DNA from: an uncultured Anaerolineales bacterium
Lineage (GTDB): Bacteria; Chloroflexota; Anaerolineae; B4-G1; SLSP01
DNA length: 61,378 bases
Direction of reading: 5' to 3'
NCBI GenBank assembly: GCA_964508025.1
Contig: CAZDSF010000008.1
Coordinates: 22,088-83,465 of the forward strand
The position numbers and the translations under genes are program-made. The notes beneath the pieces were generated by a model, which did not search any database, was not told the DNA's origin, and worked only from the letters and a program-made list of their open reading frames with translations. Positions 23,446 through 61,378 of the stretch are shown here, piece by piece; position 1 is the stretch's first letter, and each line of letters begins with the position of its first letter.

Positions 23446-23459
23446 GCGTTAGTCGCTGT

Positions 23460-43662: not shown

Positions 43663-45042
43663 TCACTCGTTTTCATTCCCGCTTGCGTTTGTTTTCTCGC
43701 GCACGCGGGCAGGGACGCCGTAGGCGAGGCTCCCGGGCGGCACATCATGGGTGACAACGCTGCCGGCGCCCGTCTTCGCGCCGGCGCCGATTTCGACGGG
43801 TGCGACCAGTAGCGTGTCGGAACCGATGAACGCGCCTGCGCCAATGACGGTGGGATGTTTGCGCCGGCCATCGTAGTTGCAGGTGATGGTTCCCGCGCCG
43901 ATGTTGGCTTCTGCGCCCACGGTGGCATCGCCCAGGTAGCTGAAATGGCCCATCTTGGCGCCGGGGCCAAGGGTGCTGTTCTTCATCTCGCCGAAGTTGC
44001 CCATGTGCGCGCCCTGGCACAAGCGCGCCCCTTTGCGCAAGTGGCCGAAGGGTCCAATCTCGCTGGCTTCTTCCATCACGGCGTCTTCCAAGACCGAAGC
44101 GGTCACGCGGCAGCGATCGCCGATTTCGCAATTCTCGATGCTGCTGTTGGGACCGATCTCACAGCCGGCGCCGATGGTCGTCGCGCCGCGCAGGTGCGTG
44201 TTGGGCAGGATGATGGTGTCGCGTTCAATGCGGACCGCGCTATCCACATAGGTTGTGGCCGGATCCATGATGGTGACGCCTTCTAACATCCAGTGCTCGT
44301 TGATGCGCTGTTGCAGGGCCTTCGCCGCCACGGCCAGCTCCACGCGGGTATTGATGCCCAAGGTCTCCAACGGATCATCCGTTTCCAGGCTCTCGATAGG
44401 CAACCCATCAGCGACAGCCATACTGATCAGGTCGGTGAGGTAGTATTCGCCTTTGCGGGGGCTGGGTTGGAGTCGCGAAAGGCGCGTCCAGAGGAAGTCG
44501 GCGTCGAAGGCGTAGATGCCGACGTTGAGTTCGCGGATGGCGGCGATTTCCGGCGTGGCTTCTGCTTCTTCGACGATTGCCTGGATGCGCCCGGCGCTAT
44601 CGCGGACGATGCGCCCGAAGCCTTGCGGATCGGCGCGGGTGACGGTCATCATAGTGATGGCGGCGCCGGCGGCGGTATGGCGCGCGCTCAGCTCGCGGAG
44701 CGTGGCGGGGCGCAGCAACGGCATATCGCCGTAGAGGACTAACACATGCGCGGCGCGCCCCTGAAGCAGGGACGACGTCTGCATGACCGCGTGACCTGTA
44801 CCGCGACGTTCGTGTTGCACGACCAGCTGGGCGCGGTCGCCCAACCAGGTGCGAATTTCCGCTTCCGTTTCCGGGCCAACGACGACCACGGGCGGGGTGG
44901 GTGTGAGCTGTGCAGCGAGTTCGAGGCTGTAGGCGAGCAACGGTTTGCCGGCCAGGGGGTGTAGCACTTTCGGCGTGGCGGATTTGAAGCGGGTGCTCAG
45001 TCCGGCGGCAAGAATCACAACGGCGAGAGCATCTTCGTGCAT
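43663..45042 (-). CDS. glmU: Bifunctional GlcNAc-1-P uridyltransferase / GlcN-1-P acetyltransferase
   Basis: Start MHEDALAVVILAAGLSTRFKS at 45042 after ggagga. C-terminal left-handed beta-helix hexapeptide repeats. The track ORF extends to 45231 over the leader. Confidence 0.93.
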   Translation of the reverse strand: MHEDALAVVILAAGLSTRFKSATPKVLHPLAGKPLLAYSLELAAQLTPTPPVVVVGPETEAEIRTWLGDRAQLVVQHERRGTGHAVMQTSSLLQGRAAHVLVLYGDMPLLRPATLRELSARHTAAGAAITMMTVTRADPQGFGRIVRDSAGRIQAIVEEAEATPEIAAIRELNVGIYAFDADFLWTRLSRLQPSPRKGEYYLTDLISMAVADGLPIESLETDDPLETLGINTRVELAVAAKALQQRINEHWMLEGVTIMDPATTYVDSAVRIERDTIILPNTHLRGATTIGAGCEIGPNSSIENCEIGDRCRVTASVLEDAVMEEASEIGPFGHLRKGARLCQGAHMGNFGEMKNSTLGPGAKMGHFSYLGDATVGAEANIGAGTITCNYDGRRKHPTVIGAGAFIGSDTLLVAPVEIGAGAKTGAGSVVTHDVPPGSLAYGVPARVREKTNASGNENE

Positions 45043-45050
45043 GAGGGCGT

Positions 45051-45140
45051 CTCCTCCAAAATAGTAATTGGTGAGCCGTGAGGGGGTGAGCAGTTTGGGC
45101 ACGGTGAACTGCGTTCTGCTCACTGCGCTCCGCGCTCTGC
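45051..45140 (-). promoter_or_regulatory. Conserved 5'-leader element, copy C (minus strand): ..GCGCAGTGAGCAG..CTGCTCAC..TCACCAATTACTATTTTGGAGGAG, 8 nt before the glmU ATG
   Basis: The reverse complement of 45051-45140 aligns with copies A and B (identical GCAGTGAGCAG, CTGCTCAC, TCACCA(G/A)TTACTATTTT). It heads the glmU-corC-cdd-purA gene string. Confidence 0.5.
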
Positions 45141-45306
45141 GAACTATTTCATCATAAACAAAAAAAGACCCGTTCGCCAGCCATCCACTGGTGTTTCCAG
45201 GTCTTATGGAATCCTCACTCTGTTGGTTCATGTGATTTTAGAATTACCTTGAGTCAAATTATAGCATACTGGAAGGGAAGCGCAACTATAAGGCGGTGTT
45301 TTGGTA

Positions 45307-45334
45307 TTGCTCAGGTCTTTCTTTCAGGTATAAT
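45307..45334 (+). promoter_or_regulatory. Candidate promoter TTGCTC-N16-TATAAT
   Basis: ttgctcaggtctttctttcaggtataat, in an AT-rich intergenic region. Confidence 0.4.
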
Positions 45335-45467
45335 ACTGCGATGCTGGCAGGCAAGTGGCGTGTAGTACCCGGCGCTGAAGAAAAACACAGCTCAGGGATG
45401 TCGGTCATTCTACAGTGTGCAGCACTCGTAGTTCCGAATGCCCTTGCTGCCTTGTGAAGTGAGATTG

Positions 45468-46706
45468 ATGCAGCCGAATCGCAAACAGATTTTTTATGGC
45501 GCTGCTGCCCTGTTGATTATAGCCGGGGCGGCATTGATGTTGTTGGGCGCGCTCTCACCGCGCAGTAACGCTCCGGGTGCGCCGCCCTCATCTGTTACGC
45601 TTACACCGGAGATCGGCGTTGATGTTCCCCTTGCGCCCACTTCGGCAGGTACAGCCACGCCTGAGCCGCTTGTCCCTACGCCGACCGCTACACCCGTGGT
45701 GCTTGCAGAATCTCTTCTGACTGTTACAGTCGCGCCGCCGCCGGCCGATGTCATAGCTGGCTCTTTCCGCATGCCAGAACGCGAGCGCTGGCGCGTGGGG
45801 ATTTCGCTGCCGCAGCTCGCAACAACGCTCGATCCTGCCACGGAAATGCATTTGCGCGCCTTGCGCGTGGGTTGGGTGATGAACTGGTGGGGGGATTTAC
45901 CGCCCGCAATGCCGCTGGGAGTGCGCTACGCGCGCACGGTGCGTTTCAAGTACGGTGTGCTGATGCCGGAGGCGCATCAGCTAATAGACCTCGCCCGTGA
46001 GAATCCCGGTGCGCTCTGGCTCATCAGTAACGAGGCTGATGTACGCTGGCAGGATAATGTGGATGCCGTGACCTATGCGCGGCTCTATCACGAGGCTTAT
46101 ACCGCGATCAAGGCGGGCGATTCCAGTGCGGTCGTCGCCGCCGGCGGCATAGCGCAGCCCTCGCCGCTACGATTGCGCTATCTGGATGCCGTTCGCGCGG
46201 CGTATCTGGAGATTTACGGCGCGCCTCTGCCGATGGATGCCTGGCATATCCACAACTATATGTTACGCGAGGAGCGCGATTCCTGGGGAGTAGATATTCC
46301 GCCGGGAATGCCCGATGATCGCGGCGTTCTTTATGAGATTGAAGATTCAGGCAATCTGGAGCTTTTTCAGGAGCAGATTGTGGCTTTTCGCGCCTGGATG
46401 GCGGCGCATGGGTATCGGGATTTGCCGCTGATCATCTCGGAATTTGGCATTGCGATGCCGGAGGATTACGGCTTCTCGCCGGAGCGGGTACAGGTGTTTC
46501 TGCGCGAGACATGGCGCTTTTTTGCTACGGCAACGGATACCGAACTTGGGCATCCCGGTGATGGGTATCGGTTGGTACAACAGTGGTGCTGGTATGGATT
46601 GACTGACACCATGTACCCAACAGGCAACCTTATCGAACCGGAAACGGGTGCATGGACGCATCTTGGGCGGGCGTGGCTGGCGATTGTTGGCGTGCCGCTG
46701 GATTGA
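45468..46706 (+). CDS. Membrane-anchored clan GH-A glycoside-hydrolase-like protein (Glyco_hydro_cc-like) with PT-rich linker
   Basis: N-terminal TM, TPEPLVPTPTATP linker, ISNEAD (acid/base NE), IISEFG (nucleophile). Clear paralog of the 55328 gene. Confidence 0.6.
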   Translation: MQPNRKQIFYGAAALLIIAGAALMLLGALSPRSNAPGAPPSSVTLTPEIGVDVPLAPTSAGTATPEPLVPTPTATPVVLAESLLTVTVAPPPADVIAGSFRMPERERWRVGISLPQLATTLDPATEMHLRALRVGWVMNWWGDLPPAMPLGVRYARTVRFKYGVLMPEAHQLIDLARENPGALWLISNEADVRWQDNVDAVTYARLYHEAYTAIKAGDSSAVVAAGGIAQPSPLRLRYLDAVRAAYLEIYGAPLPMDAWHIHNYMLREERDSWGVDIPPGMPDDRGVLYEIEDSGNLELFQEQIVAFRAWMAAHGYRDLPLIISEFGIAMPEDYGFSPERVQVFLRETWRFFATATDTELGHPGDGYRLVQQWCWYGLTDTMYPTGNLIEPETGAWTHLGRAWLAIVGVPLD

Positions 46707-46715
46707 GAGGCCAGG

Positions 46716-47753
46716 GTGGAGGGAAACGGTATTCACGCATCGAAAACGGCTCCCGGCGCCGGATGGCTGCGGGTAGCGCGCTGGCTGCTGGCACTTGTGG
46801 TCGCCGCGCTCTCAATCTGGTGGCTATTGACCCGTGATCTGGATTGGCGCGAGGTCATGGCGGCGCTCCGCACGGCCAATTATGGCTGGGTATTGCTCGG
46901 CGTGGGGGCGGTGATAGGGACGGCATTGGCGCGGGCGCAGCGGTGGCGGTTGCTGCTGTGGCAGGCAGATGTGGGGCTGAAAGCCGCGTTGACGGGGCTG
47001 TTGGTGGGGCAGGTTGGCAATATGATTGTGCCTCGCGGCGGCGATGTGGTGCGGGCGGTGTGGATCGCCCCGGAGAAGCGCACCGGCGCGCCGGAGGCGC
47101 TGGGAGCTATCGTGGTGGAGAAATTCGCCGATCTGTTGGCGCTGTTTGGTTGCGGCTTATTGCTCTTGTTATGGGGCCCTTCCCCGGACTGGTTAACGCG
47201 CTCGACGGAACGGCTGGCTGTTGTGTTGGCGGTGGGGTTGCTAGGGTTGCTGGTGATCTTCTATTGGCGCCCGACGTTGTTGGAACGTATCGCGGGGAAG
47301 CTTGCGGCGCCGCTGGGCGCTTGGGGCCACAAGGGGCTACACCTGGCTCGCCGAATGGGGCGCGGATTGGCCTCGGTGCGCCAACCGGCAATCGTTGCGC
47401 AGGTGTTAGTGTGGACGGTGTTCTACTGGGGGCTGGGCATTGCTACGAATTGGTTGGTGTTGCAGGCTTTCGATGCGCCGAATAGTTTTGGCATTCCGGC
47501 GCTGTCTACCGCGGTGTTGCTGATGGTGGCGCTGATGGCGGGCGCAGCGATTCCCGTGCCCGTTGGTCTGGGGGTGTTCGAAGGAATCTGTGTGGCGGTG
47601 TTGACTGCGGCGGGCATTTCGCCGGATGTGGCGTTAGCGGCGGGAGTGGTGCTGCATGTGACGGTGATGGGGCCGCCGGTACTCCTGGCGCTGCTGCTGG
47701 CGCTGCTTTCGGGACGCAATCTCTATAGAAGGACGGCGCATGAAAGAGCCTGA
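46716..47753 (+). CDS. Flippase-like membrane protein (lysylphosphatidylglycerol-synthase TM region / UPF0104 family)
   Basis: GTG start. 8 TM helices. LRTANYGWVLLGVGAVIGTALARAQRWRLLL pattern typical of PF03706. Confidence 0.6.
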   Translation: MEGNGIHASKTAPGAGWLRVARWLLALVVAALSIWWLLTRDLDWREVMAALRTANYGWVLLGVGAVIGTALARAQRWRLLLWQADVGLKAALTGLLVGQVGNMIVPRGGDVVRAVWIAPEKRTGAPEALGAIVVEKFADLLALFGCGLLLLLWGPSPDWLTRSTERLAVVLAVGLLGLLVIFYWRPTLLERIAGKLAAPLGAWGHKGLHLARRMGRGLASVRQPAIVAQVLVWTVFYWGLGIATNWLVLQAFDAPNSFGIPALSTAVLLMVALMAGAAIPVPVGLGVFEGICVAVLTAAGISPDVALAAGVVLHVTVMGPPVLLALLLALLSGRNLYRRTAHERA

Positions 47754-48726
47754 GATTTCGATCATCATTCCCGCGTATCAGGCGGCGGATATTATTGGGG
47801 ACTGTGTTGCCGCGTTGCATCAACAGACGTTTCCGCGGGCGCGTTATGAGATTTTGGTCGTAGATGACGCTTCGACGGATGGGACGGCAGCGGCAGCGCA
47901 AGCAGCGGGCGCGGATCGGGTGCTGACGATTGCGCATCAAGGGCCTTCGGGGGCGCGGAATGCCGGCGTCGCGGCGGCGCGGGGTGGGATTGTGCTGTTC
48001 ACGGATGCGGACTGTGTTCCCGGCCCGGAGTGGGTGGCGCGCATGGCTGCGCCTTTCGACGATCCGGCGGTGATGGGCGCCAAGGGCACCTATCGCACCC
48101 GGCAACCGGGGCTGATGGCGCATCTGGTGCAGCTGGAATTTGAGATCCGCTACGCGCGCATGGCGCGCTTGCCGCAGATTGACTTTGTGGATACCTACGC
48201 GGCGGCGTATCGCCGGGCGTTGTTGCAGGCGTGCGGCGGCTTCGATACCGCTTTTCCGATCCCTTCTGCGGAGGATGTGGAGCTCTCGTTCCGGCTGGCG
48301 CGGCAGGGGAATCGTTTTGTCTTTGTTTCTGATGCGTGGGTGTGGCATCGGCATCCCAGCCGGTTGCGCCAGTACCTGCTGCGCAAGGGACGCTATGGTT
48401 ACTGGCGCGCGCTGCTCTATCTGCGCTATCCCGACAAAGCCGGCGGCGATGCGCATACGGATCCCATGCTTAAATGGCAGCTGTTGCTGGCAGCGCTGCT
48501 GTTGTTGCTGCTGGCGGGCGGCGCGCTATGGTCGCCGCTCTGGATTGGCGCGCTGGCGGCGTTGCTGGGTTTTCTGCTCACCACGCTTCCTTTTGTGCGC
48601 TGGGCCTGGACGCGGGATCGCGCGGTGGCGCTGGTCTGGCCCTGGGTCACGCTGATACGCTCGGTGGTGCAGGGCGTTGGGTTGGCCTGGGGACTGTTGC
48701 GGCACGGCTTGTTATCCAGAGTATGA
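47740..48726 (+). CDS. GT2 glycosyltransferase with C-terminal TM helices (polyprenyl-phosphate sugar synthase-like, GtrB/Ppm1 type)
   Basis: ISIIIPAYQ...ILVVDDASTDGT...LFTDADCVP, then two C-terminal TM helices. Confidence 0.85.
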   Translation: MKEPEISIIIPAYQAADIIGDCVAALHQQTFPRARYEILVVDDASTDGTAAAAQAAGADRVLTIAHQGPSGARNAGVAAARGGIVLFTDADCVPGPEWVARMAAPFDDPAVMGAKGTYRTRQPGLMAHLVQLEFEIRYARMARLPQIDFVDTYAAAYRRALLQACGGFDTAFPIPSAEDVELSFRLARQGNRFVFVSDAWVWHRHPSRLRQYLLRKGRYGYWRALLYLRYPDKAGGDAHTDPMLKWQLLLAALLLLLLAGGALWSPLWIGALAALLGFLLTTLPFVRWAWTRDRAVALVWPWVTLIRSVVQGVGLAWGLLRHGLLSRV

Positions 48727-50105
48727 TGAGGCGCGGCGAGGCGGCAGCAAGCGGCGCTGTAAGACGAGCGGGTGGGATTATCGGCGGGGTCGCCGGAGCC
48801 GCGCTGACAGTCTTCATCCTCACGGGGGCGCGGGATCTCACATGGGCGCACTGGGGCGCGGATGGCGGGGATTTTATCGCGGCGGCGGTCATGGGACGCG
48901 CGCCCCATCCGCCGGGATTTCCGGTCTACATGGCGCTGGCGCGGTTGGCGATGCGGTTGCCCTTTGGGACGTCGGCCTGGCGCATGAATCTGCTCTCGGC
49001 AGTGATGGCAGCCGCAACTGTGGGGCTTTTCGCTGCTCTGGTGTTGCGCCGTGGGAAGGATCCCGTTGTTGCCGTTGTGTCCGCGCTGGCGCTTGCTTTT
49101 GCGCCGCTTCTGTGGTCGCAAGCCCTCATCACGGAAGTGTACACCACAGCCGCTTTCTTCGCCGTTCTGACCCTATTCCTGGCATGGACATTGCCGCGCG
49201 AGAATCCAGGCATCTTTGTGGGTGGTCTGGCGTGGGGCTTGGGGCTGGCGGCGCATCCTACGCTGATTTTTCTCGCGCCGTTGTGGTGGGGGATACCGCG
49301 ACGCTCCATCCCGGCGTTGGTCGGCGGCGTAGCGATTGCTCTGCTGCCTTATGCGTTGCTGCCGTTATGGGTTTCTGGGCCGCAGCCGTGGGGGGATTTG
49401 CGCACCGTTGCAGGTTGGTGGGAGTTTGTGACAGCGCGCTTGTATTGGGGCTATGCTTTCGCGCTACCGTTGCCGGATTGGCCCCGGCGACTGTTGGCAT
49501 GGGGCGCGTTGCTGGCGCGGCAGTTCACGCCACCGGGCGCGTTGTTGGGGGTGCTGGGTCTTGGGGCTTTGTGGCAGCAGGAGAAGACGTTGCTATGGCG
49601 CACCGGTTTGGCTTTCGGCGCGGCGAGCCTGTATGCCGTTGGTTACAATACCGCCGATTCACTGGTATATCTAGTGGTGTTTCTGGCGTTGCCGGCGCTG
49701 TGGCTGGCAGAGGGGCTGGCATGGCTTGCGCGGCAACCGGGATGGGGGAACGCGCGGTGGGGCGCGGTGGTGCTGCCGTTGGCGGCATTGCTTTGGCATT
49801 GGGGGCCGCTTGACGTGCGCCAGGATGTAGCGGCGCGCCAGTGGTGGGAAGCGGTCATGGCTCAGGCGCCTGCGGAGGCGGTGCTGGTGACGGCGGAAGA
49901 TGCGCATACCTTCACGCTCTGGTATGCACAAGAGGTCTTGGGGGTGCGGCCCGACGTCACTGTGGTGGATCGGGATCTGTGGGCGCAGCCGGGTTATCGT
50001 GACTTCATCGCGTCGCAGCGGGGGCAGCCGGCGATATCTCTGGAGGCCCTGGCGGTGGGACGCGCTTTGTGTGATGTGACAGCTACAGGAGTGACGTGCC
50101 CGTGA
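48723..50105 (+). CDS. DUF2723 (TMEM260-like) GT-C fold membrane glycosyltransferase
   Basis: ATGA overlap with the GT2 stop. DFIAAAVMGRAPHPPGFPVYMALARL...WRMNLLSA. 10+ TM helices. Confidence 0.65.
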   Translation: MMRRGEAAASGAVRRAGGIIGGVAGAALTVFILTGARDLTWAHWGADGGDFIAAAVMGRAPHPPGFPVYMALARLAMRLPFGTSAWRMNLLSAVMAAATVGLFAALVLRRGKDPVVAVVSALALAFAPLLWSQALITEVYTTAAFFAVLTLFLAWTLPRENPGIFVGGLAWGLGLAAHPTLIFLAPLWWGIPRRSIPALVGGVAIALLPYALLPLWVSGPQPWGDLRTVAGWWEFVTARLYWGYAFALPLPDWPRRLLAWGALLARQFTPPGALLGVLGLGALWQQEKTLLWRTGLAFGAASLYAVGYNTADSLVYLVVFLALPALWLAEGLAWLARQPGWGNARWGAVVLPLAALLWHWGPLDVRQDVAARQWWEAVMAQAPAEAVLVTAEDAHTFTLWYAQEVLGVRPDVTVVDRDLWAQPGYRDFIASQRGQPAISLEALAVGRALCDVTATGVTCP

Positions 50106-52102
50106 GGGCGTCATGGAGGTGCAGGGTGGGGCAATGGGATCGCTGGCGCGAGACGCTGTTGGATCCACGCAATCTCAAGCGGATTGCGTGGGCTTGTGTG
50201 GTGCTGGGCGTACTGCTGGTGGGTGTCTGGGGGGTACAAGTGCTGCGGGCGGCGTGGTCGCTGCAAGCCCGTCTGAACGAAGTGGAGGCTCTGATCGAAG
50301 GCGATCCTCTGGAGACGCTCAAGGCGGAGCCTCAACGTTTCGAGACGCTGCTCTATGCCTTGCGGCGTGATGTGGTGACCTTGCGCTCGGCGCGTGGGTT
50401 GACGCCGCTGGGACGGGCTTTCGGCTGGCTGCCCAAGGTCGGCCCGCTGTTGGCGCAGGCGACGCCGCTTCTGGATCTGGCGGATGGGTTGAGCGAAGCG
50501 GGGGTGCTGGCCTGGACGGGCTATCGTCCGCTGCTTGAGGATTGGCAGGCGGGGCGACTTTCAATCGAAGGGCTGGCGGCGCGGGTGACGGCGGGGACGC
50601 CTTACGCAGTGGCGGCGCAGCGTCCGGCGCAACGCGCGCTGGCGGCGCGCCAACAGCTCGATGTCACTGCTTTGCCGTATCGCTTCCAGGGGCCGTTGAC
50701 CCAATTGGATGCCCTGTTGCCTTTGCTGGCGGATGGGCTGATGCTGGCGGAGCACGCGCCGGATTTGTTGGGGATGGCAGGGCCGCGCACCTACCTGATT
50801 CTGGCCTTGAATGAAGATGAGCTCCGTCCTGGCGGTGGATTCATTACCGCGGTTGGAGAGGTGCGCCTCGAATCTGGAAGGATTGTTGGTCTGGAGTTCC
50901 GCGATAGCTATGCGGTGGATGATTTTTCACAACCTTATCCCAGCCCGCCGGAACCGCTACAGCGTTTCATGGGCGTGCAGCTGTGGGTTTTTCGGGATAG
51001 CAACTGGTCGCCGGACTTTCCTACCGCCATGCGGGATGGGCTGCCCCTCTATCGTCCGCAACACGCGCCCACGGTTGACGGCGTGATTGCATTGGATCAG
51101 CGCGCGGTGCAGCGGCTTGTGGGCGCCTTCAGTCCCCTGACCGTGGCCGGGGTGGATGAAGCCGTAACAGAAGAGAACATCGTGGCGTTTATGCAAGCAG
51201 CGTGGGCGCCGGATGATGGGGTGCTTGACCGGGAGTGGTGGCAGCAACGTAAATCGTTCATGGGCGATCTTGCGGCGGCGGTGCTGGCGCGCGCGGAACG
51301 CGGTGATGTGAATTGGCCGCAGCTGTTGCGGGAATTGATGACGGTGCTGAATCAGAAACACATACAGGTCTATTTGGAAGGCTCAGCAGCGGCAGTTTTG
51401 CGGCAACGTGGTTGGGATGGTGCGCTCCGCGAGCCGGCGGGGGATTTGCTGTTGCTGGCCGAGGCGAATGTGGGGTACAATAAGGTCACGCCCCGAATCC
51501 GCCGCTCGGCGCAGTATGGGGTGGATTTGAGCCTCGCGCCGCCCCGCGCGCAGTTGCAGGTGACGTACACGCACACTGGCAAGGTTCCTTATCCCTGTAC
51601 GCCTGAGGTGCGTTATGATCCTGTGTACGAAGCGATGATGAATCGCTGCTATTGGGCTTATGTGCAGGTATTCGCGCCGGCAGGGATCACCTTGTTGGAA
51701 GCGAGCCGCCATCCGATTGCCGCAGAGGCGGTGTGGACGCGGGAGGCGTGGGACGGCGCCCCCATCGTGACCTCCGTCGCCGACGGATACACACGAGTGG
51801 AGCAGGCGTTCTTGCTGGCGCCGGGCGAGACTACGACGCTCGCTTTGGATTACGAACTATTGGTTTCAGTGTTGCAACGCGAGGGCCAACAGGTTACGTA
51901 CCGCTTGGACTTCCAAAAGCAGGCGGGACTGGCCGAGTTGCCGTTCGAGATAACCTTGCGCCTGCCGGAGAATGCGGTATTATGGTCAGCGCAGCCGGCG
52001 CCGACCGCGACGATGGGCAATGTGCTGTTGTTCAAAGGGCTAATGGTGCAGGATTTGGATTTCCGTGTGCAATACCTTGAGGGAGAGAGAGCATCGCCAT
52101 GA
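50096..52102 (+). CDS. DUF4012-like membrane-anchored periplasmic protein
   Basis: N-terminal TM. LILALNEDELRPGGGFITAVGEVRLESGRIVGLEFRDSY resembles the DUF4012 core. The start is per the track; the printed sequence near 50096-50101 could not be reconciled to the base. Confidence 0.5.
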   Translation: MPVRASWRCRVGQWDRWRETLLDPRNLKRIAWACVVLGVLLVGVWGVQVLRAAWSLQARLNEVEALIEGDPLETLKAEPQRFETLLYALRRDVVTLRSARGLTPLGRAFGWLPKVGPLLAQATPLLDLADGLSEAGVLAWTGYRPLLEDWQAGRLSIEGLAARVTAGTPYAVAAQRPAQRALAARQQLDVTALPYRFQGPLTQLDALLPLLADGLMLAEHAPDLLGMAGPRTYLILALNEDELRPGGGFITAVGEVRLESGRIVGLEFRDSYAVDDFSQPYPSPPEPLQRFMGVQLWVFRDSNWSPDFPTAMRDGLPLYRPQHAPTVDGVIALDQRAVQRLVGAFSPLTVAGVDEAVTEENIVAFMQAAWAPDDGVLDREWWQQRKSFMGDLAAAVLARAERGDVNWPQLLRELMTVLNQKHIQVYLEGSAAAVLRQRGWDGALREPAGDLLLLAEANVGYNKVTPRIRRSAQYGVDLSLAPPRAQLQVTYTHTGKVPYPCTPEVRYDPVYEAMMNRCYWAYVQVFAPAGITLLEASRHPIAAEAVWTREAWDGAPIVTSVADGYTRVEQAFLLAPGETTTLALDYELLVSVLQREGQQVTYRLDFQKQAGLAELPFEITLRLPENAVLWSAQPAPTATMGNVLLFKGLMVQDLDFRVQYLEGERASP

Positions 52103-52665
52103 AGTTGAAGCTGGGTTTGGGATTGGGGCTGTTGGTCGTGTTGTTGTCCTACCTGGCATTGCTGCCGGTGGCCTGGGCCAGTCCGGGGCAATCTGAAGTG
52201 CGGCAGACGGTGCCTACGCCTACGCCTCCCCGAACGCCGGAGCCTGAACCTCCGCCGACGGAGGAGCCGCCTTCGCCACCAACGGAGGAGCCGCCTCTGC
52301 CGACGCCAACGGGAACGCCGGCGCCCGTCTTGCCGACCGCGACGCCGACGCTTGCGGCAACGGCGGTACCGGCGACACCCTCGCCGTCGCCAACGGTTGC
52401 ATTGCTGACACCAACGCTAACAGTCACGCCGGCGCCTTCTGCGACGCCGACGGTAACGCAACCTGCGCCCACGGCAACGCCTGCGGCATCTCCCACGCTC
52501 GTTCTTACAACGCCAGCTCCTACGTTACCGGCGCCGGCCGCAACGCCAACGCCGGTACTCCCATCGTCGGAACGTGGCTTCTCGCCGTTGGTATTTGGGG
52601 GTGGGTTCCTTATGCTTCTTGGCCTGGGTGCGTTCTTGCTATCCCGGCGCCGTTCCGATGGGTGA
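52099..52665 (+). CDS. Pro/Thr-rich surface protein with signal peptide and C-terminal TM plus RRRSDG tail
   Basis: MKLKLGLGLGLLVVLLSYLALLPVAWA; about 120 aa of PT repeats; ...LPSSERGFSPLVFGGGFLMLLGLGAFLLSRRRSDG. Confidence 0.6.
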   Translation: MKLKLGLGLGLLVVLLSYLALLPVAWASPGQSEVRQTVPTPTPPRTPEPEPPPTEEPPSPPTEEPPLPTPTGTPAPVLPTATPTLAATAVPATPSPSPTVALLTPTLTVTPAPSATPTVTQPAPTATPAASPTLVLTTPAPTLPAPAATPTPVLPSSERGFSPLVFGGGFLMLLGLGAFLLSRRRSDG

Positions 52666-52695
52666 GTGCTGTGTTGTTAAATCCAGAGGTGTGAT

Positions 52696-53757
52696 ATGAG
52701 AAAGCATCGTATTGCAGTTGTTGTTTGCTTGTTGCTGGCAATATTGGCGGGAATTCCGGCTGAGAGCACGCTGGCGAATGCGGTGACGCCGTTCCTCGCT
52801 GAGTATCCTGTGCCTGGTAAGCCGCAAGCTGTCGCCGTCGAGGCGCCGAATCGCGTGTGGTTCACGTTGCCGGAAGCAAATCTGATTGGACGGCTGGTGG
52901 TGACTTCGACCACGCAGTTTGCGGTGACAACGTTCCCCGTACCTACGGCTGCGAGCCAGCCCTACGACTTGAAAGTTGCAGGTGGCTATGTGTGGTTCAC
53001 GCAACGCACTGGCAACAAGATCGGGCGGCTACAGCCGACGACGGGCGTGATCACCGAGTATCCTGTTCCCACATCTGGCAGCGAGCCGACGGGGATCGCG
53101 GTCTTGACAGGAGCCTCTGTGACGAACGTATGGTTCACCCAACGCACTGCCAATCAACTGGGACGATTGGTCATCACCGGCACGACTACCTCTAAGATGT
53201 ATGAGTACCCGCTGCCGGCGGCGTTCCCCAATGCGTACCCGCAGGATGTGGCAATTTATGGGGCCGATAGCATTTGGTTTACTGCGCCTGGGGTAGGGCG
53301 TGTGGGGGAATTCAAGCCCTCGTTGGTGGGAGGGATGTTCAATCCTTTTGAGATGTTGTTGAGCGGCGGGGAGCCGTGGTCTATTGCAACGGGCGGCGGC
53401 AGCCTGGCGGTCTGGTTCACGGATCGTAGCGGCAATCGGCTCGGCGCTTACTATCCGCAGACGATCTCCAATTTCTTCTGGTATCCGTTGCCGGCAAATA
53501 ATAGCAATCCGTATGATGTGGTGGTCAGGCAAGGGCGTATCTGGTTCACACAGGAGACCGGCTGGCGTGTGGGCGAGGTGAACGCGCAGTCTGGCGCAAT
53601 CTATGAATATGGCGTTGGCGCCACGTTGCGCGGCCTCGATGTGGATGCTAACGGGCATGTGTGGTTTGCTGAACATGGCGCAAACAAGATCGGTGAGTGG
53701 CGTCCTCCGTATTTCTACCGGGTGATGTTGCCGCTCGTGCTCAGAGCATATCCGTAA
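52696..53757 (+). CDS. Secreted Vgb-like (streptogramin-lyase-type) beta-propeller repeat protein
   Basis: Signal peptide. About 7 repeats of ..VWFTQRTGNKIGRL / VWFTLPEANLIGRL / IWFTQETGWRVGEV. Ends ...YRVMLPLVLRAYP. Confidence 0.55.
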   Translation: MRKHRIAVVVCLLLAILAGIPAESTLANAVTPFLAEYPVPGKPQAVAVEAPNRVWFTLPEANLIGRLVVTSTTQFAVTTFPVPTAASQPYDLKVAGGYVWFTQRTGNKIGRLQPTTGVITEYPVPTSGSEPTGIAVLTGASVTNVWFTQRTANQLGRLVITGTTTSKMYEYPLPAAFPNAYPQDVAIYGADSIWFTAPGVGRVGEFKPSLVGGMFNPFEMLLSGGEPWSIATGGGSLAVWFTDRSGNRLGAYYPQTISNFFWYPLPANNSNPYDVVVRQGRIWFTQETGWRVGEVNAQSGAIYEYGVGATLRGLDVDANGHVWFAEHGANKIGEWRPPYFYRVMLPLVLRAYP

Positions 53758-53867
53758 TGCCTTTTCAGAGGACACGAGATTGCAGGTGGGACTGGAGAAT
53801 ACGTTAGCGTTCTCCGGTGTCCTTGTGCATTTCGAAAGACAGTAAGGTGTAGTTTTAGGAGATTGTG

Positions 53868-55334
53868 ATGCGGTTTCTATGGCGTGGTTACAAATCGGCT
53901 GCTGTGGCTCTGTTCCTCGTGGGATTATGTGTGGCGTTATCGGCGCCGGCGACACCGACAGTAGGGCTGAATGGCATTCCAATTGAGTCTGAATGGCTGC
54001 CGACGGAGATTGAATCTGGGCCGGTTCTGGGGCACAAGTTGTTTCTGCCTTTCATTTTCAAAAATCACGCTCCTACTCCTCCGGAAACGTTGTTTGGAGT
54101 TCAGATGTACGGTTCGTGGGTTACGAATGACAACTCTCTCGGTCTGGCTCGTGTAGCGCGGGTATCATGGATACGCTGGCCGATCTCCTGGTCGCAAATC
54201 GAACCGGTTAATGTCAGCCCGAGTCAGTACAGCTGGGCAGCAACGGATGCGGCGATTGCCAAAGTTATTGCTTCAGGACACCGGCCGATTATAACGATTG
54301 CGAGCAACCCATCCTGGGCAGCGACTTATGCACAAGGGCCAATAGATAGGGTTAGTCTTTTGGAGTTTGCTGAATTTGTTGAAGAACTCGTGGAACGCTA
54401 TGACGGTGATGGCTACTGTGACGCTCCTGGATCACCAGTAGTTCGCTACTGGGAGTTTTACAATGAGCCAGATGCGTACAATCGTTGGGCAGCGGAGCAA
54501 GGATATGGGGCATATTGGGGAATGCATGGTGACCAATATGCAGAAATGTTATGCGCGGTTTATCCGATGATTAAACATGTAAGCCCTGATGCTAAGGTTG
54601 TTCTTGGCGGTATTGCTTATGACTCGTTTCTGGATGAGGGAGGGTCATTTTATCGTAGATTTATAGATGATGTGCTGGATCATGGCGGTGGGAATTGTTT
54701 TGATTATATGAATTTCCACTATTACCCGTCATTTGAGTCGCGTTGGAATGAATACGGTAATGGATTAGTTGGCAAGACTAACTATATGCGTAACAAATTG
54801 GCCCAATACAATCTATCCAAACCCATGATGGTTACAGAGGCTGGTTGGCATAGTAATTTCTACAACAGTCAATTTCCTGGATCCCCAGAAATCCAGAGCC
54901 GTTATGTAGTTAAGCTCTTTGCTCAGGGTGCTGCAGCGCAATTAAACTCTCTCATTTGGTGGTCCTGGATTGATCCCGGTTTGCCTTATGGAGAGAATGG
55001 CTTGCTAAATCAACAATTCGAACCCAAGCCTTCTTTCACTGCTTACCAATTTGCAGCAGAGAAAATCGGGTTAGCACAATTTGATCGCATTGAGCCAACA
55101 GCTTCTGGAGTGGAAGGTTACCGTTTCACAGCTATAAATGGTCGAAAGATTTATGTTTTTTGGTCTGGTGATGGGCAACCGCGCGCTGTAACAGTATCTG
55201 CTACGCAGGCACAATTGAAGAATATGTATGGGCAGCTCGTCCGTATTGTTCGGGATGGAGATGATGGCGTTCTCGATGGCCGGATTCGGGTGGCGGTGGA
55301 TGCGAATCCGGTGTATGTGGAGGTAGATTGGTGA
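53868..55334 (+). CDS. Secreted clan GH-A glycoside-hydrolase-like protein
   Basis: Signal peptide. FYNEPD (acid/base), MMVTEAGW (nucleophile). Post-signal KLFLPFIFKNHAP motif. Moderate-GC composition. Confidence 0.55.
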   Translation: MRFLWRGYKSAAVALFLVGLCVALSAPATPTVGLNGIPIESEWLPTEIESGPVLGHKLFLPFIFKNHAPTPPETLFGVQMYGSWVTNDNSLGLARVARVSWIRWPISWSQIEPVNVSPSQYSWAATDAAIAKVIASGHRPIITIASNPSWAATYAQGPIDRVSLLEFAEFVEELVERYDGDGYCDAPGSPVVRYWEFYNEPDAYNRWAAEQGYGAYWGMHGDQYAEMLCAVYPMIKHVSPDAKVVLGGIAYDSFLDEGGSFYRRFIDDVLDHGGGNCFDYMNFHYYPSFESRWNEYGNGLVGKTNYMRNKLAQYNLSKPMMVTEAGWHSNFYNSQFPGSPEIQSRYVVKLFAQGAAAQLNSLIWWSWIDPGLPYGENGLLNQQFEPKPSFTAYQFAAEKIGLAQFDRIEPTASGVEGYRFTAINGRKIYVFWSGDGQPRAVTVSATQAQLKNMYGQLVRIVRDGDDGVLDGRIRVAVDANPVYVEVDW

Positions 55335-56794
55335 AACGACTATCTGCCGGTATGTGGCGCGTTGCCCTTGCCGGGGTGATGTTGTGGCTGCTCATATCGG
55401 GCATAGCGACGGAGCGTGCATCCGTGGCGGGGAACGCCGGAGATATATTCACCGCGACGACACAAGCCGCGCCCTTGTGTCGCTTTGGCGTGGGCGGCCC
55501 TGGGAACACGCTCAGCTATCCGATTCAGCCGCTGCAACTTGGCTGGTATGTGGATTGGCGGGTGAATAGCAATGCTTCGCCGCCGGCTGGTATGGACTAT
55601 CTACCCATGGTGCGCCTGTCGCAGACCGGCCCCGATTCTTACAGCTACGCGCCGGATCAGAGCGTGCTGGCGACGCTGGCAACCAATCGTCCCGGTATGA
55701 CGTGGTTGATTGGCAATGAGCCGGATCGCCGCCGGTGGCAGGATGATCTTGAGCCGCATGTGTATGCGAAAGCTTATCATGATTTGTATCATATTCTCAA
55801 GGCGGCAGATCCGACAGCGCAGATTGCCGCTGGTGGTATCGTGCAGCCCACCCCCGTGCGCTTGCTTTATCTGGACATGATTCTGGATAACTACCGCCAA
55901 CGCTATGGCGCGCCCATGCCCATAGATGTCTGGAATATTCACGCCTTTATTCTCCGGGAGCGCAGTTGTCAATACTACCCGGAGGATTGTTGGGGGGCCG
56001 AAATTCCTCCCGGCATTGATTGGCCGCAGGGTGAGCTATACGACATTCAAGACAATGACAATCTGGACATCTTCAAGCAGTTTGTGCAGAATTTCCGCGC
56101 CTGGATGGCCTCGCGGGGCTACCAGGATCGGCCTTTGATTATCACCGAGTTTGGCGTGCAGATGCCGGCAATGTATGGCTTCACCGCGCAGCGCGTGAAT
56201 GCCTATATGAACGCCACCTTCGACTATTTGCGTACTGCAACCGGCTCTACAGGCTATCCCGCAGATGGTTATCGTCTGGTTCAGCGGTGGGCCTGGTACA
56301 GTCTGACGGATAACACTTTCAATGGCTGGTTGTTCGACTCGCCGACGCAGCGCACGGTGTTTGGCGACAACTGGGCCGCCTATGTGGCGCAGATTGACCC
56401 TCAAGTGAACCTGGCGCCGGTTAAGCTATGGACCTCGCCCTCGGCGCCTTTCTCGCCCACGGATCCTGTCACGCTCACGTTGGGAGCAACTGTCGTGAAT
56501 AACGGCGACGTGGCATTCACCGGACCTGTAGTGGTGCGTTTCTACGCAGGTACGCCTTCTAGTGGTCAGCAAATTGGCGCGGATCAACTGGTGATGGCGT
56601 TACCTGGGTGCGCAGCAACGACTACGGTCAGCGTGACGATGCCCAACGTGCCTCCCGGCAGGCATCCGGTCTATGTGGTGGTGGATCCTGAGGGGCAGAT
56701 TTCTGAGAGCGATAAGACGGATAATGTGTTGGTCGGGCATGTGCTGGTCGCCACACAACGCTTGTTTTTACCTTTGGTGTCAAGATCGTGGTGA
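55328..56794 (+). CDS. Secreted clan GH-A glycoside-hydrolase-like protein (paralog of 45468) with C-terminal CARDB domain
   Basis: LIGNEPD / LIITEFG. CARDB-like ...VVNNGDVAFTGPVVVRFYAG...VVVDPEGQISESDKTDN. Ends ...RLFLPLVSRSW. Confidence 0.6.
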   Translation: MVKRLSAGMWRVALAGVMLWLLISGIATERASVAGNAGDIFTATTQAAPLCRFGVGGPGNTLSYPIQPLQLGWYVDWRVNSNASPPAGMDYLPMVRLSQTGPDSYSYAPDQSVLATLATNRPGMTWLIGNEPDRRRWQDDLEPHVYAKAYHDLYHILKAADPTAQIAAGGIVQPTPVRLLYLDMILDNYRQRYGAPMPIDVWNIHAFILRERSCQYYPEDCWGAEIPPGIDWPQGELYDIQDNDNLDIFKQFVQNFRAWMASRGYQDRPLIITEFGVQMPAMYGFTAQRVNAYMNATFDYLRTATGSTGYPADGYRLVQRWAWYSLTDNTFNGWLFDSPTQRTVFGDNWAAYVAQIDPQVNLAPVKLWTSPSAPFSPTDPVTLTLGATVVNNGDVAFTGPVVVRFYAGTPSSGQQIGADQLVMALPGCAATTTVSVTMPNVPPGRHPVYVVVDPEGQISESDKTDNVLVGHVLVATQRLFLPLVSRSW

Positions 56795-58417: not shown

Positions 58418-58444
58418 ATCTTGTCGGAGAACTTTTAACTTCTG

Positions 58445-60918: not shown

Positions 60919-61378
60919 GAAAGTCCGGTAATTTGCTAGCTGAAAGTATTGCTGCTATTATAGTTTTTATCGCGGCATATTTCGTGATAACTTTCCCTTT
61001 ACTCACGCGACCTGGTTATTTGGTCTGGGGACGGCCGTTTGAGGATGCTTGGGAAAGCATTGGATTCTTGGAGTGGTACAAGCATTCTCTATTTGATTTG
61101 CATGTTTCCCCGTTGTTTCGAACCGATGTGTTTTATCCTGGCGGCTGGGATTTACGTTACGCGATTCTTCCGCCATTATTCCCTACGTTGTTGGCGCCAA
61201 TCACATATTTTTTAGGTTCGGTGTTAACTTATAATATTACATTATTATTTACAACTGTTGTTGCTGCCTATGGTACGTTTTTGTTAGCTAATACATTACG
61301 CCCTGGTTGGTGGGCCGGATTGATAGCGGGTTTTTTGTACGCATTTTGCCCGCAACGAGAGGTGTATCTCGGTGTGCA
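60915..61378 (+). CDS. Membrane protein, 5' part only (runs off window end)
   Basis: ATG at 60915 overlaps the wzt stop (ATGA). Open frame to 61378: MRKSGNLLAESIAAIIVFIAAYFVITFPLL.... Confidence 0.4.
   Translation, partial: MRKSGNLLAESIAAIIVFIAAYFVITFPLLTRPGYLVWGRPFEDAWESIGFLEWYKHSLFDLHVSPLFRTDVFYPGGWDLRYAILPPLFPTLLAPITYFLGSVLTYNITLLFTTVVAAYGTFLLANTLRPGWWAGLIAGFLYAFCPQREVYLGV

Follow-up and report, generated by a model that had tools for sequence, protein, structure and literature searches.

Several described systems co-encode a lipid-phosphate-sugar synthase, a flippase and a GT-C glycosyltransferase, among them GtrA/GtrB/Gtr*, ArnC/E/F/T, CsbB/GtcA/YfhO, GacI-L and the GT136 pentofuranose systems, and such three-component systems tolerate differing synthase and flippase families. 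In the AglD/AglR/AglS system of Haloferax volcanii, AglD, a GT2 fused to a UPF0104 domain, makes Dol-P-Man, and this mannose on dolichyl phosphate is used outside the cell by the polytopic transferase AglS on a glycoprotein. Human TMEM260 (PDB 9RQL/9RQM/9RQN; PF11028) has a GT-C membrane module with its active site on the non-cytoplasmic side of the membrane. Its residues D52, H67 and D441 are essential, D52 and H67 forming a donor-binding, sugar-recognition motif and D441 serving as the catalytic base in a Rossmann-like domain (bioRxiv 10.64898/2026.03.17.711096). The TPR domain of the human enzyme is necessary and sufficient for peptide binding.

Here we describe a six-gene operon that is conserved in Anaerolineae/Thermoflexales and lies in a window of 61,378 nucleotides from an uncultured Anaerolineales bacterium. 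At its centre is an enzyme homologous to, but shorter than, human TMEM260, a protein O-mannosyltransferase, and the cluster is probably a variant of the three-component extracytoplasmic glycosylation scheme that acts on proteins. The GT-C membrane module is homologous to that of TMEM260; unlike the human protein, the enzyme has 460 rather than 707 residues, the candidate motif (V/I)PTRTP lies in disordered PT-rich tracts rather than forming an IPT-domain sequon, and a DUF4012 partner gene is almost always adjacent. The locus departs from the three-component systems in its candidate synthase (a minimal cellulose/hyaluronan-synthase-like GT2, not a GtrB type), its candidate flippase (UPF0104, not GtrA/SMR, MATE or Wzx), its TMEM260-type GT-C, its candidate protein rather than polysaccharide acceptor, and the extra conserved components DUF4012, GHa and PTsmall. 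Physical coupling of a GT2 to a UPF0104 domain recalls AglD, in which the GT2 is N-terminal, whereas UPF0104 comes first in the fusions found here; the acceptor of AglS is an N-linked glycan, unlike the candidate acceptors of this locus. Finally, O-glycosylation of P/T-rich exported proteins, a polyprenyl-phosphate sugar donor and a monoderm envelope, all proposed here, are features of actinobacterial Pmt (GT39)/Ppm1. That system is general and Sec-coupled, in contrast to the short motif and operon-encoded candidate substrates of this locus, which has a TMEM260-type GT-C and no Ppm1-like synthase.

Results

A six-gene unit with a conserved order

The first-pass annotation had described four consecutive, overlapping genes as a lipid-linked glycosylation module. 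These ORFs are present on the + strand, and all four products pass the cut-offs of PF03706, PF00535, PF11028 and PF13196. The genes are indeed linked, but the unit was drawn too small, since the upstream hydrolase and the downstream small PT-rich protein are also members. The unit comprises six genes (45438-52665), listed here with their motifs and with the genes that follow:

45438-46706, + strand: GHa, membrane-anchored clan GH-A hydrolase-like protein with a PT-rich linker (homolog profile, TM prediction)
45663-45686, + strand: GHa linker motif EPLVPTPT, residues 76-83 (family consensus TPTPEP(L/I)(V/I)PTRTP)
46716-47753, + strand: UPF0104/LPG_synthase_TM polytopic protein, MprF flippase-domain family (PF03706, E 3.3e-44)
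47740-48726, + strand: membrane-embedded GT2, 328 aa (PF00535, E 2e-28; PF13641, E 2e-28; PF13632; PF13506)
48723-50105 (ORF from 48474), + strand: short-form TMEM260/DUF2723-type GT-C, 460 aa (PF11028, E 1.5e-17)
50096-52102, + strand: DUF4012 protein, 668 aa (PF13196, E 7e-30)
52099-52665, + strand: PTsmall, 188-aa mucin-like type I membrane protein (sequence, composition)
52201-52227, + strand: PTsmall motif RQTVPTPTP, residues 35-43, at the mature N-terminal tip (position frequencies)
52696-56794, + strand: accessory secreted enzymes, often cluster-linked (Pfam), comprising the next three
52696-53757, + strand: Vgb-lyase-like beta-propeller (PF24684, E 4.5e-60)
53865-55334, + strand: GH5-like enzyme (PF00150, E 8e-6)
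55328-56794, + strand: GHa paralog with a CARDB domain (PF07705, E 3e-7)
56807-61378, + strand: further envelope glycan genes (Pfam, translation of window end), comprising the next four
56807-58417, + strand: PMT_2-type GT-C (PF13231, E 1.8e-11)
58445-59710, + strand: GT87-like GT-C (PF09594, E 9e-7)
59698-60918, + strand: Wzt ABC ATPase with Wzt_C (PF14524, E 3e-29)
60915 onwards, + strand: polytopic membrane protein, start only (translation of window end)

Within the unit, UPF0104 and GT2 overlap by 14 nt and GT-C and DUF4012 by 10 nt, while ATGA overlaps join GT2 to GT-C (48723-48726), as had been noted, and DUF4012 to PTsmall (52099-52102). Pfam also bore out the PMT_2, GT87 and Wzt assignments further downstream. 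The trio of Vgb-lyase-like, GH5-like and GHa-paralog genes recurs in about 10 loci.

Synteny was examined in 80 Chloroflexota species representatives, and the suggested Chloroflexi-type origin of the DNA is supported. At least 56 of 60 loci have DUF4012 following GT-C, at least 53 of 67 have GT2 ahead of it, and 52 of 63 have UPF0104 either upstream or fused. In 25 of 31 loci flanked by at least 6 kb per side, GHa is the gene immediately before UPF0104 or immediately after PTsmall. When a strict motif rule is applied, 41 of the 53 loci with room have a PTsmall ortholog of matching layout behind DUF4012, and four further orthologs carry variant motifs. Dozens of species-level genomes repeat this gene order, so the arrangement is not due to chance; conservation in some 50 or more species, the translational overlaps and UPF0104-GT2 fusions in three genomes (L026, L052 and L057, with UPF0104 as the N-terminal part) together support the functional linkage of the genes. 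In four loci (L003, L009, L010 and L049), a methyltransferase and a very divergent pair take the place of UPF0104 and GT2, with GT-C still orthologous; the GT2 of the variant clusters is PgaC-like, and GT2 is absent altogether from L064, L025 and L072. The genomes of these four variant loci are the nearest relatives of the window after L007.

The GT-C enzyme and its DUF4012 neighbour

The DUF2723 assignment of the GT-C held, and its homologs carry both PF11028 and PF28495 (TMEM260_2). Residues 6-236 match human TMEM260 (9rql, E 1.6e-18); a second matching stretch, 358-426, is weak, the alignment over D393 scoring 7.9 bits on its own. All 43 homologs share D47 and H62, and at least 90% of them share D393; these residues are the equivalents of human D52, H67 and D441. 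By this alignment, the first outward loop still has its donor-binding Asp and His, and the Rossmann-like domain its Asp. The enzyme consists of the GT-C membrane module and a Rossmann-like extracytoplasmic domain, and lacks the TPR "finger", the peptide-binding domain of human TMEM260, which counts against a role in protein glycosylation. The positive-inside rule places the GT-C loop, DUF4012, the catalytic domain of GHa and the PT-rich tract outside, in line with the outward catalytic centre proposed earlier.

The DUF4012 protein, likewise outside the cytoplasm and better termed extracytoplasmic than periplasmic, has an N-in TM anchor (32-50), a TPR-like extracytoplasmic helical domain (about 24-224), an alpha/beta DUF4012 core (229-440) and a C-terminal beta-sandwich region resembling Ost1/ribophorin (about 450-662). 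Resemblance to Ost1 and to LCP proteins is confined to the fold: there is no sequence similarity to Ost1/ribophorin I, a non-catalytic subunit of eukaryotic oligosaccharyltransferase (OST) that lacks the extra helical and alpha/beta domains, and the beta-sandwich fold is also common to the N-domains of M1 aminopeptidases. We propose DUF4012 as a candidate partner or accessory subunit of GT-C.

GT2 and the UPF0104 protein

An AlphaFold2 model of GT2 (pLDDT 93.2) comprises a cytoplasmic GT-A domain, interface helices and about three C-terminal membrane helices in a minimal cellulose/hyaluronan-synthase-like fold, rather than the two C-terminal TM helices of a GtrB/Ppm1 layout that had been assigned to it. 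Invariant residues are DD42-43, D89xD91, E178-D179 and R215-K216-x-R218...W222-R223, and the QxxRW motif is degenerate (RKGRY). The best NCBIfam matches, MftF and EpsD, are both below cut-off. The best full-length PDB sequence match is PcManGT of Pyrobaculum calidifontis (6YV7), which likewise combines a GT-A domain with three C-terminal membrane helices in a "minimal cellulose-synthase-like fold"; identity is about 23%, and PcManGT belongs to an N-glycan cluster, without a UPF0104 partner. PcManGT, hyaluronan synthases (TMq 0.71-0.75) and BcsA head the Foldseek matches, with GtrB, DPMS and ArnC absent from the top 50. ArnC and DPMS align with residues 5-128 at most, a generic similarity over roughly the first 100 residues, and we therefore rejected a GtrB/Ppm1-like identity. 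PcManGT is reportedly a dolichyl-phosphate-dependent mannosyltransferase, with three helices that are said to make up just "half" of the tunnel of a synthase. Among small cellulose-synthase-like GT2/GT21 enzymes, glycosylation of lipid hydroxyls and assembly of oligomers are common activities. A role for GT2 as a polyprenyl-phosphate-sugar donor synthase is plausible, inferred rather than assigned by family; to our knowledge, every known polyprenyl-phosphate-hexose donor is made by an enzyme of the GtrB/DPM1/ArnC type, which counts against it.

The UPF0104 protein has seven hydrophobic segments and matches the TIGR00374 "flippase-like domain" model (59.8 bits, cut-off 43.2); the HpnL and MprF NCBIfam models score below their cut-offs, and none of the AglD-related models reaches its own. 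It shares its Pfam family with the MprF flippase domain, GpgF and E. coli YbhN ("PplT"), which have an adjoining or fused lipid-modifying enzyme at the cytoplasmic face, comparable to GT2. Their known or proposed cargos are aminoacyl- or glucosaminyl-phosphatidylglycerol, whereas here the neighbour is a GT2 and a GT-C lies downstream. We propose the protein as a candidate lipid-linked sugar flippase.

GHa and PTsmall share a cluster-specific motif

The presence of PT-rich proteins at 45438 and 52099 was borne out by their sequences. GHa has an N-terminal TM segment (18-36) and invariant NEP/NEA and SEFG-type motifs. Alone it has no Pfam match; a profile of 22 homologs partially matches the GH128 structures 6uas/6uaq (E 3e-5), and homologs match PF11790 faintly. 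By these comparisons, GHa is a distant relative of GH128 (Glyco_hydro_cc) and a paralog of the protein at 55328-56794. PTsmall, which has no Pfam or NCBIfam match, begins with a signal peptide (...VAWA/SP) and a conserved tip, PGQSxxRQTVPTPTP, continues for about 120 P/T-rich residues and ends in a G-rich TM helix and an RRR tail; the hydrophobic-plus-basic C-terminus is found in 41 of 44 complete copies.

We newly found that PTsmall and GHa have (V/I)PTRTP in common. The PTsmall consensus reads W-A-(A/M)-P-G-Q-S-P-x-R-Q-T-V-P-T-R-T-P, with position frequencies T42 V42 P47 T47 R36 T40 P35 (n=47). GHa orthologs carry [LIVFT][LIV]PT in 49 of 51 cases and P[LIVF][LIV]PT in 42 of 51. Of the ORFs assigned to the two families, 27 of 40 for PTsmall and 29 of 51 for GHa contain the string [VI]PTRT (56/91 together), vs 8 of 8,741 other six-frame ORFs of the same loci, six of the eight being unlabelled PTsmall orthologs. 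The register is fixed relative to the signal peptide or TM, and the 48 motif instances derive from 47 distinct 18-mers, which indicates selection at the protein level. Its near-absence from other ORFs and its many different codons point to (V/I)PTRTP as a candidate O-glycosylation sequon. The shared motif makes both proteins candidate GT-C targets and PTsmall a candidate dedicated acceptor, a stronger link to PT-rich proteins than had been proposed.

Discussion

We tentatively favor, at a little below an even chance, a model in which the operon glycosylates on the outer face of the cytoplasmic membrane. GT2 would transfer sugar from a nucleotide sugar to a membrane lipid, most likely polyprenyl phosphate, at the cytoplasmic face, and the UPF0104 protein would flip the product. 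GT-C and DUF4012 would then place the sugar onto Thr of the exported PTsmall and GHa, with (V/I)PTRTP as recognition or priming site and the adjoining PT-rich tracts as possible further sites. Based on its TPR-like helical domain and Ost1/ribophorin-like region, DUF4012 may provide in trans the acceptor handling done by the TPR domain in TMEM260. The earlier interpretation thus stands as to domains, linkage, outward GT-C and PT-rich proteins, but not as to the GtrB/Ppm1 layout; the comparison with actinobacterial PMT (GT39) is an analogy, as the enzyme is of TMEM260 type.

Some loci keep GT-C, DUF4012 and PTsmall but have a different UPF0104+GT2 pair or none, which suggests an exchangeable or dispensable donor module and counts against this model. 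This pattern would fit a separate membrane-glycolipid unit, performing GpgSDF/MprF-type head-group modification and flipping or glycosyl-diacylglycerol synthesis and yielding an anchor, an acceptor or some unrelated membrane lipid, while a housekeeping GtrB/Ppm1-type synthase encoded elsewhere supplies GT-C. We consider this somewhat unlikely. The cellulose/hyaluronan-synthase/GT21-like fold and sequence of GT2, the PgaC-like variants and the flipping of modified glycerolipids by UPF0104 in MprF (predicted likewise in GpgSDF) speak for it; however, the pair lies immediately 5' of GT-C with overlapping codons in most species, the 61-kb window holds no GtrB-like gene, and AglD exemplifies a GT2-UPF0104 combination able to serve a polyprenyl-phosphate-sugar pathway. 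The hyaluronan-synthase matches, the reported half tunnel, the fusions and the GH genes of the unit could also reflect a synthase-dependent exopolysaccharide machine, in which a glycan polymer made by GT2 is translocated along a path that UPF0104 completes and is trimmed by GHa, as is done by BcsZ and PslG, and DUF4012 and GT-C attach or prime it on an anchored PT-rich protein, yielding a bacterial proteoglycan. The degenerate QxxRW motif and the mere three or so membrane helices of GT2 make this highly improbable; moreover, we know of no UPF0104 protein that conducts polymer and of no GT-C donor that is not lipid-phosphate linked.

The acceptor, too, could differ. DUF4012 is found elsewhere in polysaccharide loci, and this, with the adjacent Wzt and other GT-C genes, fits a glycan acceptor: GT-C, with the PMT_2 and GT87 enzymes, would add sugar from a lipid-phosphate donor to an exported polysaccharide, teichoic-acid-like polymer or lipoglycan of the Wzt pathway, resembling Gtr, GacI-L or CsbB/YfhO side-chain addition or mycobacterial LM/LAM elongation, and the PT-rich proteins would be envelope proteins merely travelling with the locus. 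We regard this as unlikely. The sole characterised member of the GT-C family is a protein O-mannosyltransferase whose protein-directed catalytic Asp is conserved here, and Wzt lies near the cluster in only 17 of 31 well-covered loci, whereas 29 of 32 have at least one gene for a motif-bearing protein no more than 8 kb away. A glycan acceptor also leaves unexplained why the otherwise near-absent (V/I)PTRTP occurs in two unrelated cluster proteins. The PT-rich pair GHa and PTsmall provides candidate targets for a bacterial member of the TMEM260 family.

Gene order and conservation of the envelope cluster

From position 45438 to the end of the window, the plus strand carries a single dense stretch of envelope genes, from which glmU (43663-45231, minus strand) and corC diverge. 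The first-pass annotation had proposed a lipid-linked glycosylation module of four consecutive genes in this stretch, and we found all four in place, each with a Pfam match:

46716-47753, plus strand: UPF0104 protein (PF03706 LPG_synthase_TM, E 3.3e-44)
47740-48726, plus strand: GT2 (PF00535 and PF13641, E 2e-28 each)
48723-50105, plus strand: GT-C (PF11028 TMEM260-like, E 1.5e-17)
50096-52102, plus strand: DUF4012 protein (PF13196, E 7e-30)

The overlaps between the genes are genuine, with ATGA at 48723-48726 and 52099-52102 and overlaps of 14 nt and 10 nt at the other two junctions. Two PT-rich proteins (45438 and 52099) are likewise confirmed, as are the PMT_2 and GT87-like GT-C genes and a Wzt gene with a Wzt_C domain. 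The four genes do belong together, yet the conserved unit extends beyond them. A promoter/terminator scan of 45000-54000 returned sites no commoner than in shuffles and thus does not mark the operon ends.

Homologs of GT-C come almost exclusively from Anaerolineae MAGs. Pfam-annotated neighbourhoods at 66%, 58% and 53% identity share the order hydrolase-like, UPF0104, GT2, TMEM260-like, DUF4012 and a small protein without a Pfam match, with Wzt a few genes off. Our synteny sample comprised 80 loci, one genome per species, annotated by phmmer with the window proteins as queries; their titles are nearly all Anaerolineae, Anaerolineales, Thermoflexales or Chloroflexota, the exceptions being three labelled Chloroflexia and three others (Armatimonadota, Verrucomicrobiota and 'uncultured bacterium'). 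Among loci with enough flank, DUF4012 lies immediately 3' of GT-C in at least 56 of 60, GT2 immediately 5' in at least 53 of 67, and UPF0104 5' or fused in 52 of 63, counts that are lower bounds because, under strict rules, stop-to-stop ORF limits misclassified three loci (L016, L023 and L034) as negatives. UPF0104 and GT2 are joined in a single ORF in L026 (7685-9904), L052 (2589-4679) and L057 (6931-8811), and Pfam confirmed the two-domain layout in L026 and L057, the two fusions tested. In these fusions LPG_synthase_TM is N-terminal and GT2 C-terminal, whereas archaeal AglD has the reverse domain order. The conserved synteny rules out a chance juxtaposition of the cluster genes.

In the closest relatives of the window after locus L007, the UPF0104 and GT2 pair has been swapped out while GT-C is still orthologous. 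Such variant clusters (L003, 6053-9044; also L009, L010, L049 and L077) carry a divergent UPF0104, a SAM methyltransferase and a PgaC-like GT2 (best NCBIfam match PgaC/IcaA, 120 bits), together with an extra TMEM260_N/PMT_2 GT-C 3' of the small protein; GT2 is missing from L064, L025 and L072. The pair is exchangeable among loci.

Towards the window end, Wzt (59698-60918) is an ABC ATPase with a Wzt_C glycan-cap-binding domain, and its stop overlaps by ATGA the gene of a polytopic membrane protein (60915-61378, extending past the window end) that has no Pfam match. An 877-aa PMT_2-type GT-C gene comes next after Wzt in L001. Neither in the window nor in the close loci inspected (L001 and L005) is Wzt flanked by a Wzm/ABC-2 permease gene. 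The remainder of the window (GyrA, MoxR/DUF58, catalase-peroxidase and others) holds neither a GtrB-like synthase nor a Wzm permease; its trio of MoxR-type AAA_3 ATPase, DUF58 and DUF4129 (22453-26386) has no connection with the glycosylation cluster.

GT-C is a short-form homolog of human TMEM260

The GT-C enzyme (460 aa) scores 64.4 bits with PF11028 (cut-off 24.2), and its homologs also match the newer Pfam model PF28495 TMEM260_2. Residues 6-236 align with residues 14-262 of the human protein O-mannosyltransferase TMEM260 (9rql_A, E 1.6e-18). Donor binding by the human enzyme requires D52 and H67 of its sugar-recognition motif, and the catalytic base is D441, in the luminal Rossmann-like domain (bioRxiv 10.64898/2026.03.17.711096). 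We found that D52 aligns to D47 (GADGGDF) and H67 to H62 (PHPPGFP), both invariant in 43 homologs, and that D441 aligns to D393 (TAEDAHT), which is at least 90% conserved in the same homologs and lies in a stretch that scores just 7.9 bits alone. The positive-inside rule places the N-terminus in the cytoplasm and the D47 loop on the outside.

According to the cryo-EM preprint, the C-terminal TPR domain of TMEM260 is necessary and sufficient for binding of the acceptor peptide. Beyond the alignment, which reaches TMEM260 residue 474, the window GT-C has only about 35 further residues; it thus stops soon after the Rossmann-like domain and, with no TPR Pfam match, differs from the human enzyme in this recruiting domain while still belonging to the TMEM260 family. 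HMMER related 10,288 representative clusters (50% identity) at E ≤0.001, 379 of them, the close short-form relatives, at E ≤1e-30. As the best 150 relatives are mostly of 450-550 aa, the short form is a sizeable family. Actinobacterial and fungal PMT (GT39) enzymes, in contrast, are defined by PF02366, for which the window GT-C gave no match and precomputed matches exist in some homologs only. In the searched literature, bacterial TMEM260 homologs are mentioned solely as 'distant homologs'.

GT2 and UPF0104 as candidate donor machinery

The layout of a GtrB/Ppm1-type synthase, which the first-pass annotation had assigned to GT2, was not borne out, because sequence and fold matches favour PcManGT and hyaluronan synthases. 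The best full-length PDB sequence match is PcManGT (6yv7, residues 3-218), whereas ArnC and DPMS structures align over residues 5-128 at most (E 1.8e-5 to 2e-3). NCBIfam models of ArnC and PpgS cover the first ~100 residues, far under their cut-offs; MftF and EpsD matches are partial and sub-threshold, and PgaC, NodC and CelA models also stay far under cut-off. The AF2 model (pLDDT 93.2) comprises a GT-A domain, interface helices (209-235) and three C-terminal helices (244-261, 266-281 and 294-327); it was used for helix assignment, as a Kyte-Doolittle scan at a threshold of 1.6 returned one TM. Foldseek ranked PcManGT at the top, followed by hyaluronan synthases (query TM-score 0.71-0.75) and BcsA, with no GtrB, DPMS or ArnC in the top 50. 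Invariant residues comprise DD, DxD, ED and a degenerate QxxRW (RKGRY). With RKGRY in place of QxxRW and about three helices in place of a 6-8-helix channel, GT2 does not show the features of a processive cellulose, hyaluronan or PNAG synthase.

PcManGT is reportedly a dolichyl-phosphate-dependent mannosyltransferase with three membrane helices, a helix number that we confirmed. In Haloferax volcanii, AglD, a GT2 fused to UPF0104, transfers mannose onto dolichyl phosphate for use outside the cell by AglS. Because these two proteins offer precedents, it is plausible by analogy that GT2 acts as a lipid-linked sugar synthase despite its non-GtrB fold. The UPF0104 protein passes the NCBIfam model TIGR00374 'flippase-like domain' and falls under the cut-offs of HpnL and MprF.

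The cluster would work like three-component extracytoplasmic glycosylation systems and like AglD/AglS. As in Gtr-type systems, GT-C is encoded together with candidate donor genes, in overlapping genes of conserved order. Unlike in these systems, GT2 is not a GtrB/DPM1/ArnC-type synthase and there is no small GtrA/SMR, MATE or Wzx flippase in the cluster, the sole candidate being the UPF0104/PF03706 protein. The coupling of GT2 with UPF0104, by gene overlap here and by fusion in L026, L052 and L057, is that of AglD; the DPM1-like catalytic domain of these Dol-P-hexose synthases is not found in GT2, which scores ≤36.8 bits (AglG) against haloarchaeal Agl GT2 models with cut-offs of 325-440.

DUF4012 is a possible partner of GT-C

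The literature knows DUF4012 only as an uncharacterised protein of Gram-positive CPS/EPS loci. Its AF2 model (pLDDT 90.3) consists of an N-in anchor, a long helical domain, an alpha/beta core and a C-terminal beta-rich region. Searches against the PDB gave nothing useful with the single sequence and helical noise with a profile. An assignment as LytR-CpsA-Psr (LCP) phosphotransferase was rejected, as neither a PF03816 match nor profile similarity was found. Because its gene trails, and here overlaps, that of a GT-C without an acceptor-binding domain of its own, DUF4012 may be a partner subunit of GT-C, a suggestion that we regard as a lead rather than an established result.

A threonine motif recurs in two unrelated exported proteins

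The gene following DUF4012 encodes a small mucin-like protein (PTsmall, 52099-52665) and is nearly universal in clusters of this type. Its product has a signal peptide whose last residues are WA; (A/M)P comes next, then the conserved tip PGQSPxRQTVPTRTP, 100-150 P/T-rich residues and, at the C-terminus, a hydrophobic G-rich helix with an RR(R) tail. A strict motif rule finds it in 41 of the 53 loci with room, and variant motifs add four more; the anchor is kept in 41 of 44 complete copies. The conserved element is the tip and not the composition of the tract: the ortholog in L058 keeps the tip (LQTVPTRS) with the P/T-rich tract replaced by long poly-Ser/Lys repeats. The C-terminus (FGGGFLMLLGLGAFLLSRRRSDG, 52560-52665, and orthologs) resembles GlyGly-CTERM/PEP-CTERM-type sorting signals in its G-rich start, hydrophobic helix and Arg cluster; it matches no NCBIfam model, and no sortase-like gene lies in the cluster.

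In the hydrolase at the other end of the cluster (GHa, 45438-46706), a PT-rich linker joins an N-terminal TM to a clan GH-A barrel that is a remote relative of GH128 (E 3e-5); a PDB search with its single sequence gave nothing useful. The linker reads TPTPEP(L/I)(V/I)PTRTP in 42-49 of 51 orthologs. In the window itself, the two motifs are:

45663-45686, plus strand: GHa linker motif EPLVPTPT (window sequence)
52201-52227, plus strand: PTsmall motif RQTVPTPTP (window sequence)

The motif is nearly confined to these two genes: [VI]PTRT occurs in 27/40 PTsmall ORFs and 29/51 GHa ORFs and in 8 of the 8,741 further ORFs read in six frames from these loci, six of these eight being unlabelled PTsmall orthologs. 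The 48 instances of [VI]PTRTP use 47 different 18-mers, and it is therefore the peptide, not the DNA, that is under selection. In 29 of 32 well-covered loci, one or more genes with the motif are found no further than 8 kb from GT-C. That a Thr motif is common to two unrelated exported proteins, both encoded next to a homolog of a sequon-reading protein O-mannosyltransferase, is the best, though indirect, argument for protein glycosylation. The (V/I)PTRTP motif may instead be a processing or sorting signal; a literature search on the motif string returned nothing relevant.

Accessory genes may have been acquired laterally

Between 54000 and 60000, G+C drops from about 0.62 to 0.44-0.51 across the Vgb-like, GH5-like, GHb-CARDB (a CARDB-containing GHa paralog), PMT_2, GT87 and Wzt genes. 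In the 'Chloroflexia' MAG loci L025 and L042, genes of this block score much higher (e.g. GHb 784 and GH5 674 bits) than GT-C (322-355 bits). Both observations suggest acquisition of the block by lateral transfer. A secreted beta-propeller of the virginiamycin B lyase family (52696-53757; PF24684, E 4.5e-60) falls far under the cut-offs for Vgb(A/B) resistance proteins. Because this Vgb-like gene co-travels with the GH5-like and GHb-CARDB genes, which it accompanies in about 10 loci, we favour an envelope-glycan enzyme over an antibiotic lyase as its product.

Working model and alternatives

We propose that GT2 would make a lipid-linked sugar inside the cell, that UPF0104 would flip it, and that GT-C with DUF4012 would move the sugar outside onto Thr of proteins bearing (V/I)PTRTP. 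We tentatively consider this whole chain the most likely explanation, although we would not assert it. Within it, homology, the conservation of catalytic residues, topology, gene linkage and the specificity of the motif are shown; the lipid carrier, the sugar, flipping, the acceptor and the part played by DUF4012 are inferred. Founded entirely on genomics and modelling, the protein-glycosylation operon is a well-supported and experimentally tractable hypothesis. A bolder version, which we put forward as a possibility on the doubtful side, takes the cluster as the first TMEM260-type system of protein O-glycosylation in bacteria for which genetics defines the substrates. TPR-less GT-C would then form a complex with DUF4012 as an Ost1/TPR-like acceptor-handling subunit, Thr of the sequon would be glycosylated at the PTsmall tip and in the GHa linker, and the donor would come from the cellulose-synthase-like GT2 via the MprF-type (UPF0104) flippase. 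In the searched literature we found neither the operon nor the motif described, and no function for a bacterial DUF2723 protein.

The shared motif speaks for protein acceptors; the nearby Wzt gene would fit a GT-C that decorates a polysaccharide or lipoglycan of the adjoining Wzt pathway, which we judge unlikely. GT2 and UPF0104 might also make and flip a separate glycolipid, with the GT-C donor coming from elsewhere, an arrangement compatible with protein acceptors. UPF0104 proteins also serve head-group modification of glycerolipids, in MprF and, by prediction, in GpgSDF, which counts against a polyprenyl donor role, and the AglD precedent counts for it; we hold a separate glycolipid to be rather doubtful. 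The fold likeness of GT2 to hyaluronan synthases would suit a synthase-type exopolysaccharide or proteoglycan machine, which its degenerate motif and few helices make very improbable.

The bolder version, if true, would assign a function to DUF4012 and bacterial DUF2723, establish a sequon for O-glycosylation in bacteria and demonstrate that UPF0104 flips a polyprenyl-P-sugar. The operon offers a testable enzyme-substrate hypothesis with a candidate sequon, donor machinery and accessory subunit. Confirmation would bring new families of synthase and flippase into the three-component glycosylation paradigm and provide an evolutionary and mechanistic counterpart of human TMEM260, an enzyme whose loss leads to a congenital syndrome of heart and kidney. 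It would also show in what way envelope proteins are decorated in filamentous Chloroflexota, organisms that abound in sludge, sediments and hot springs.
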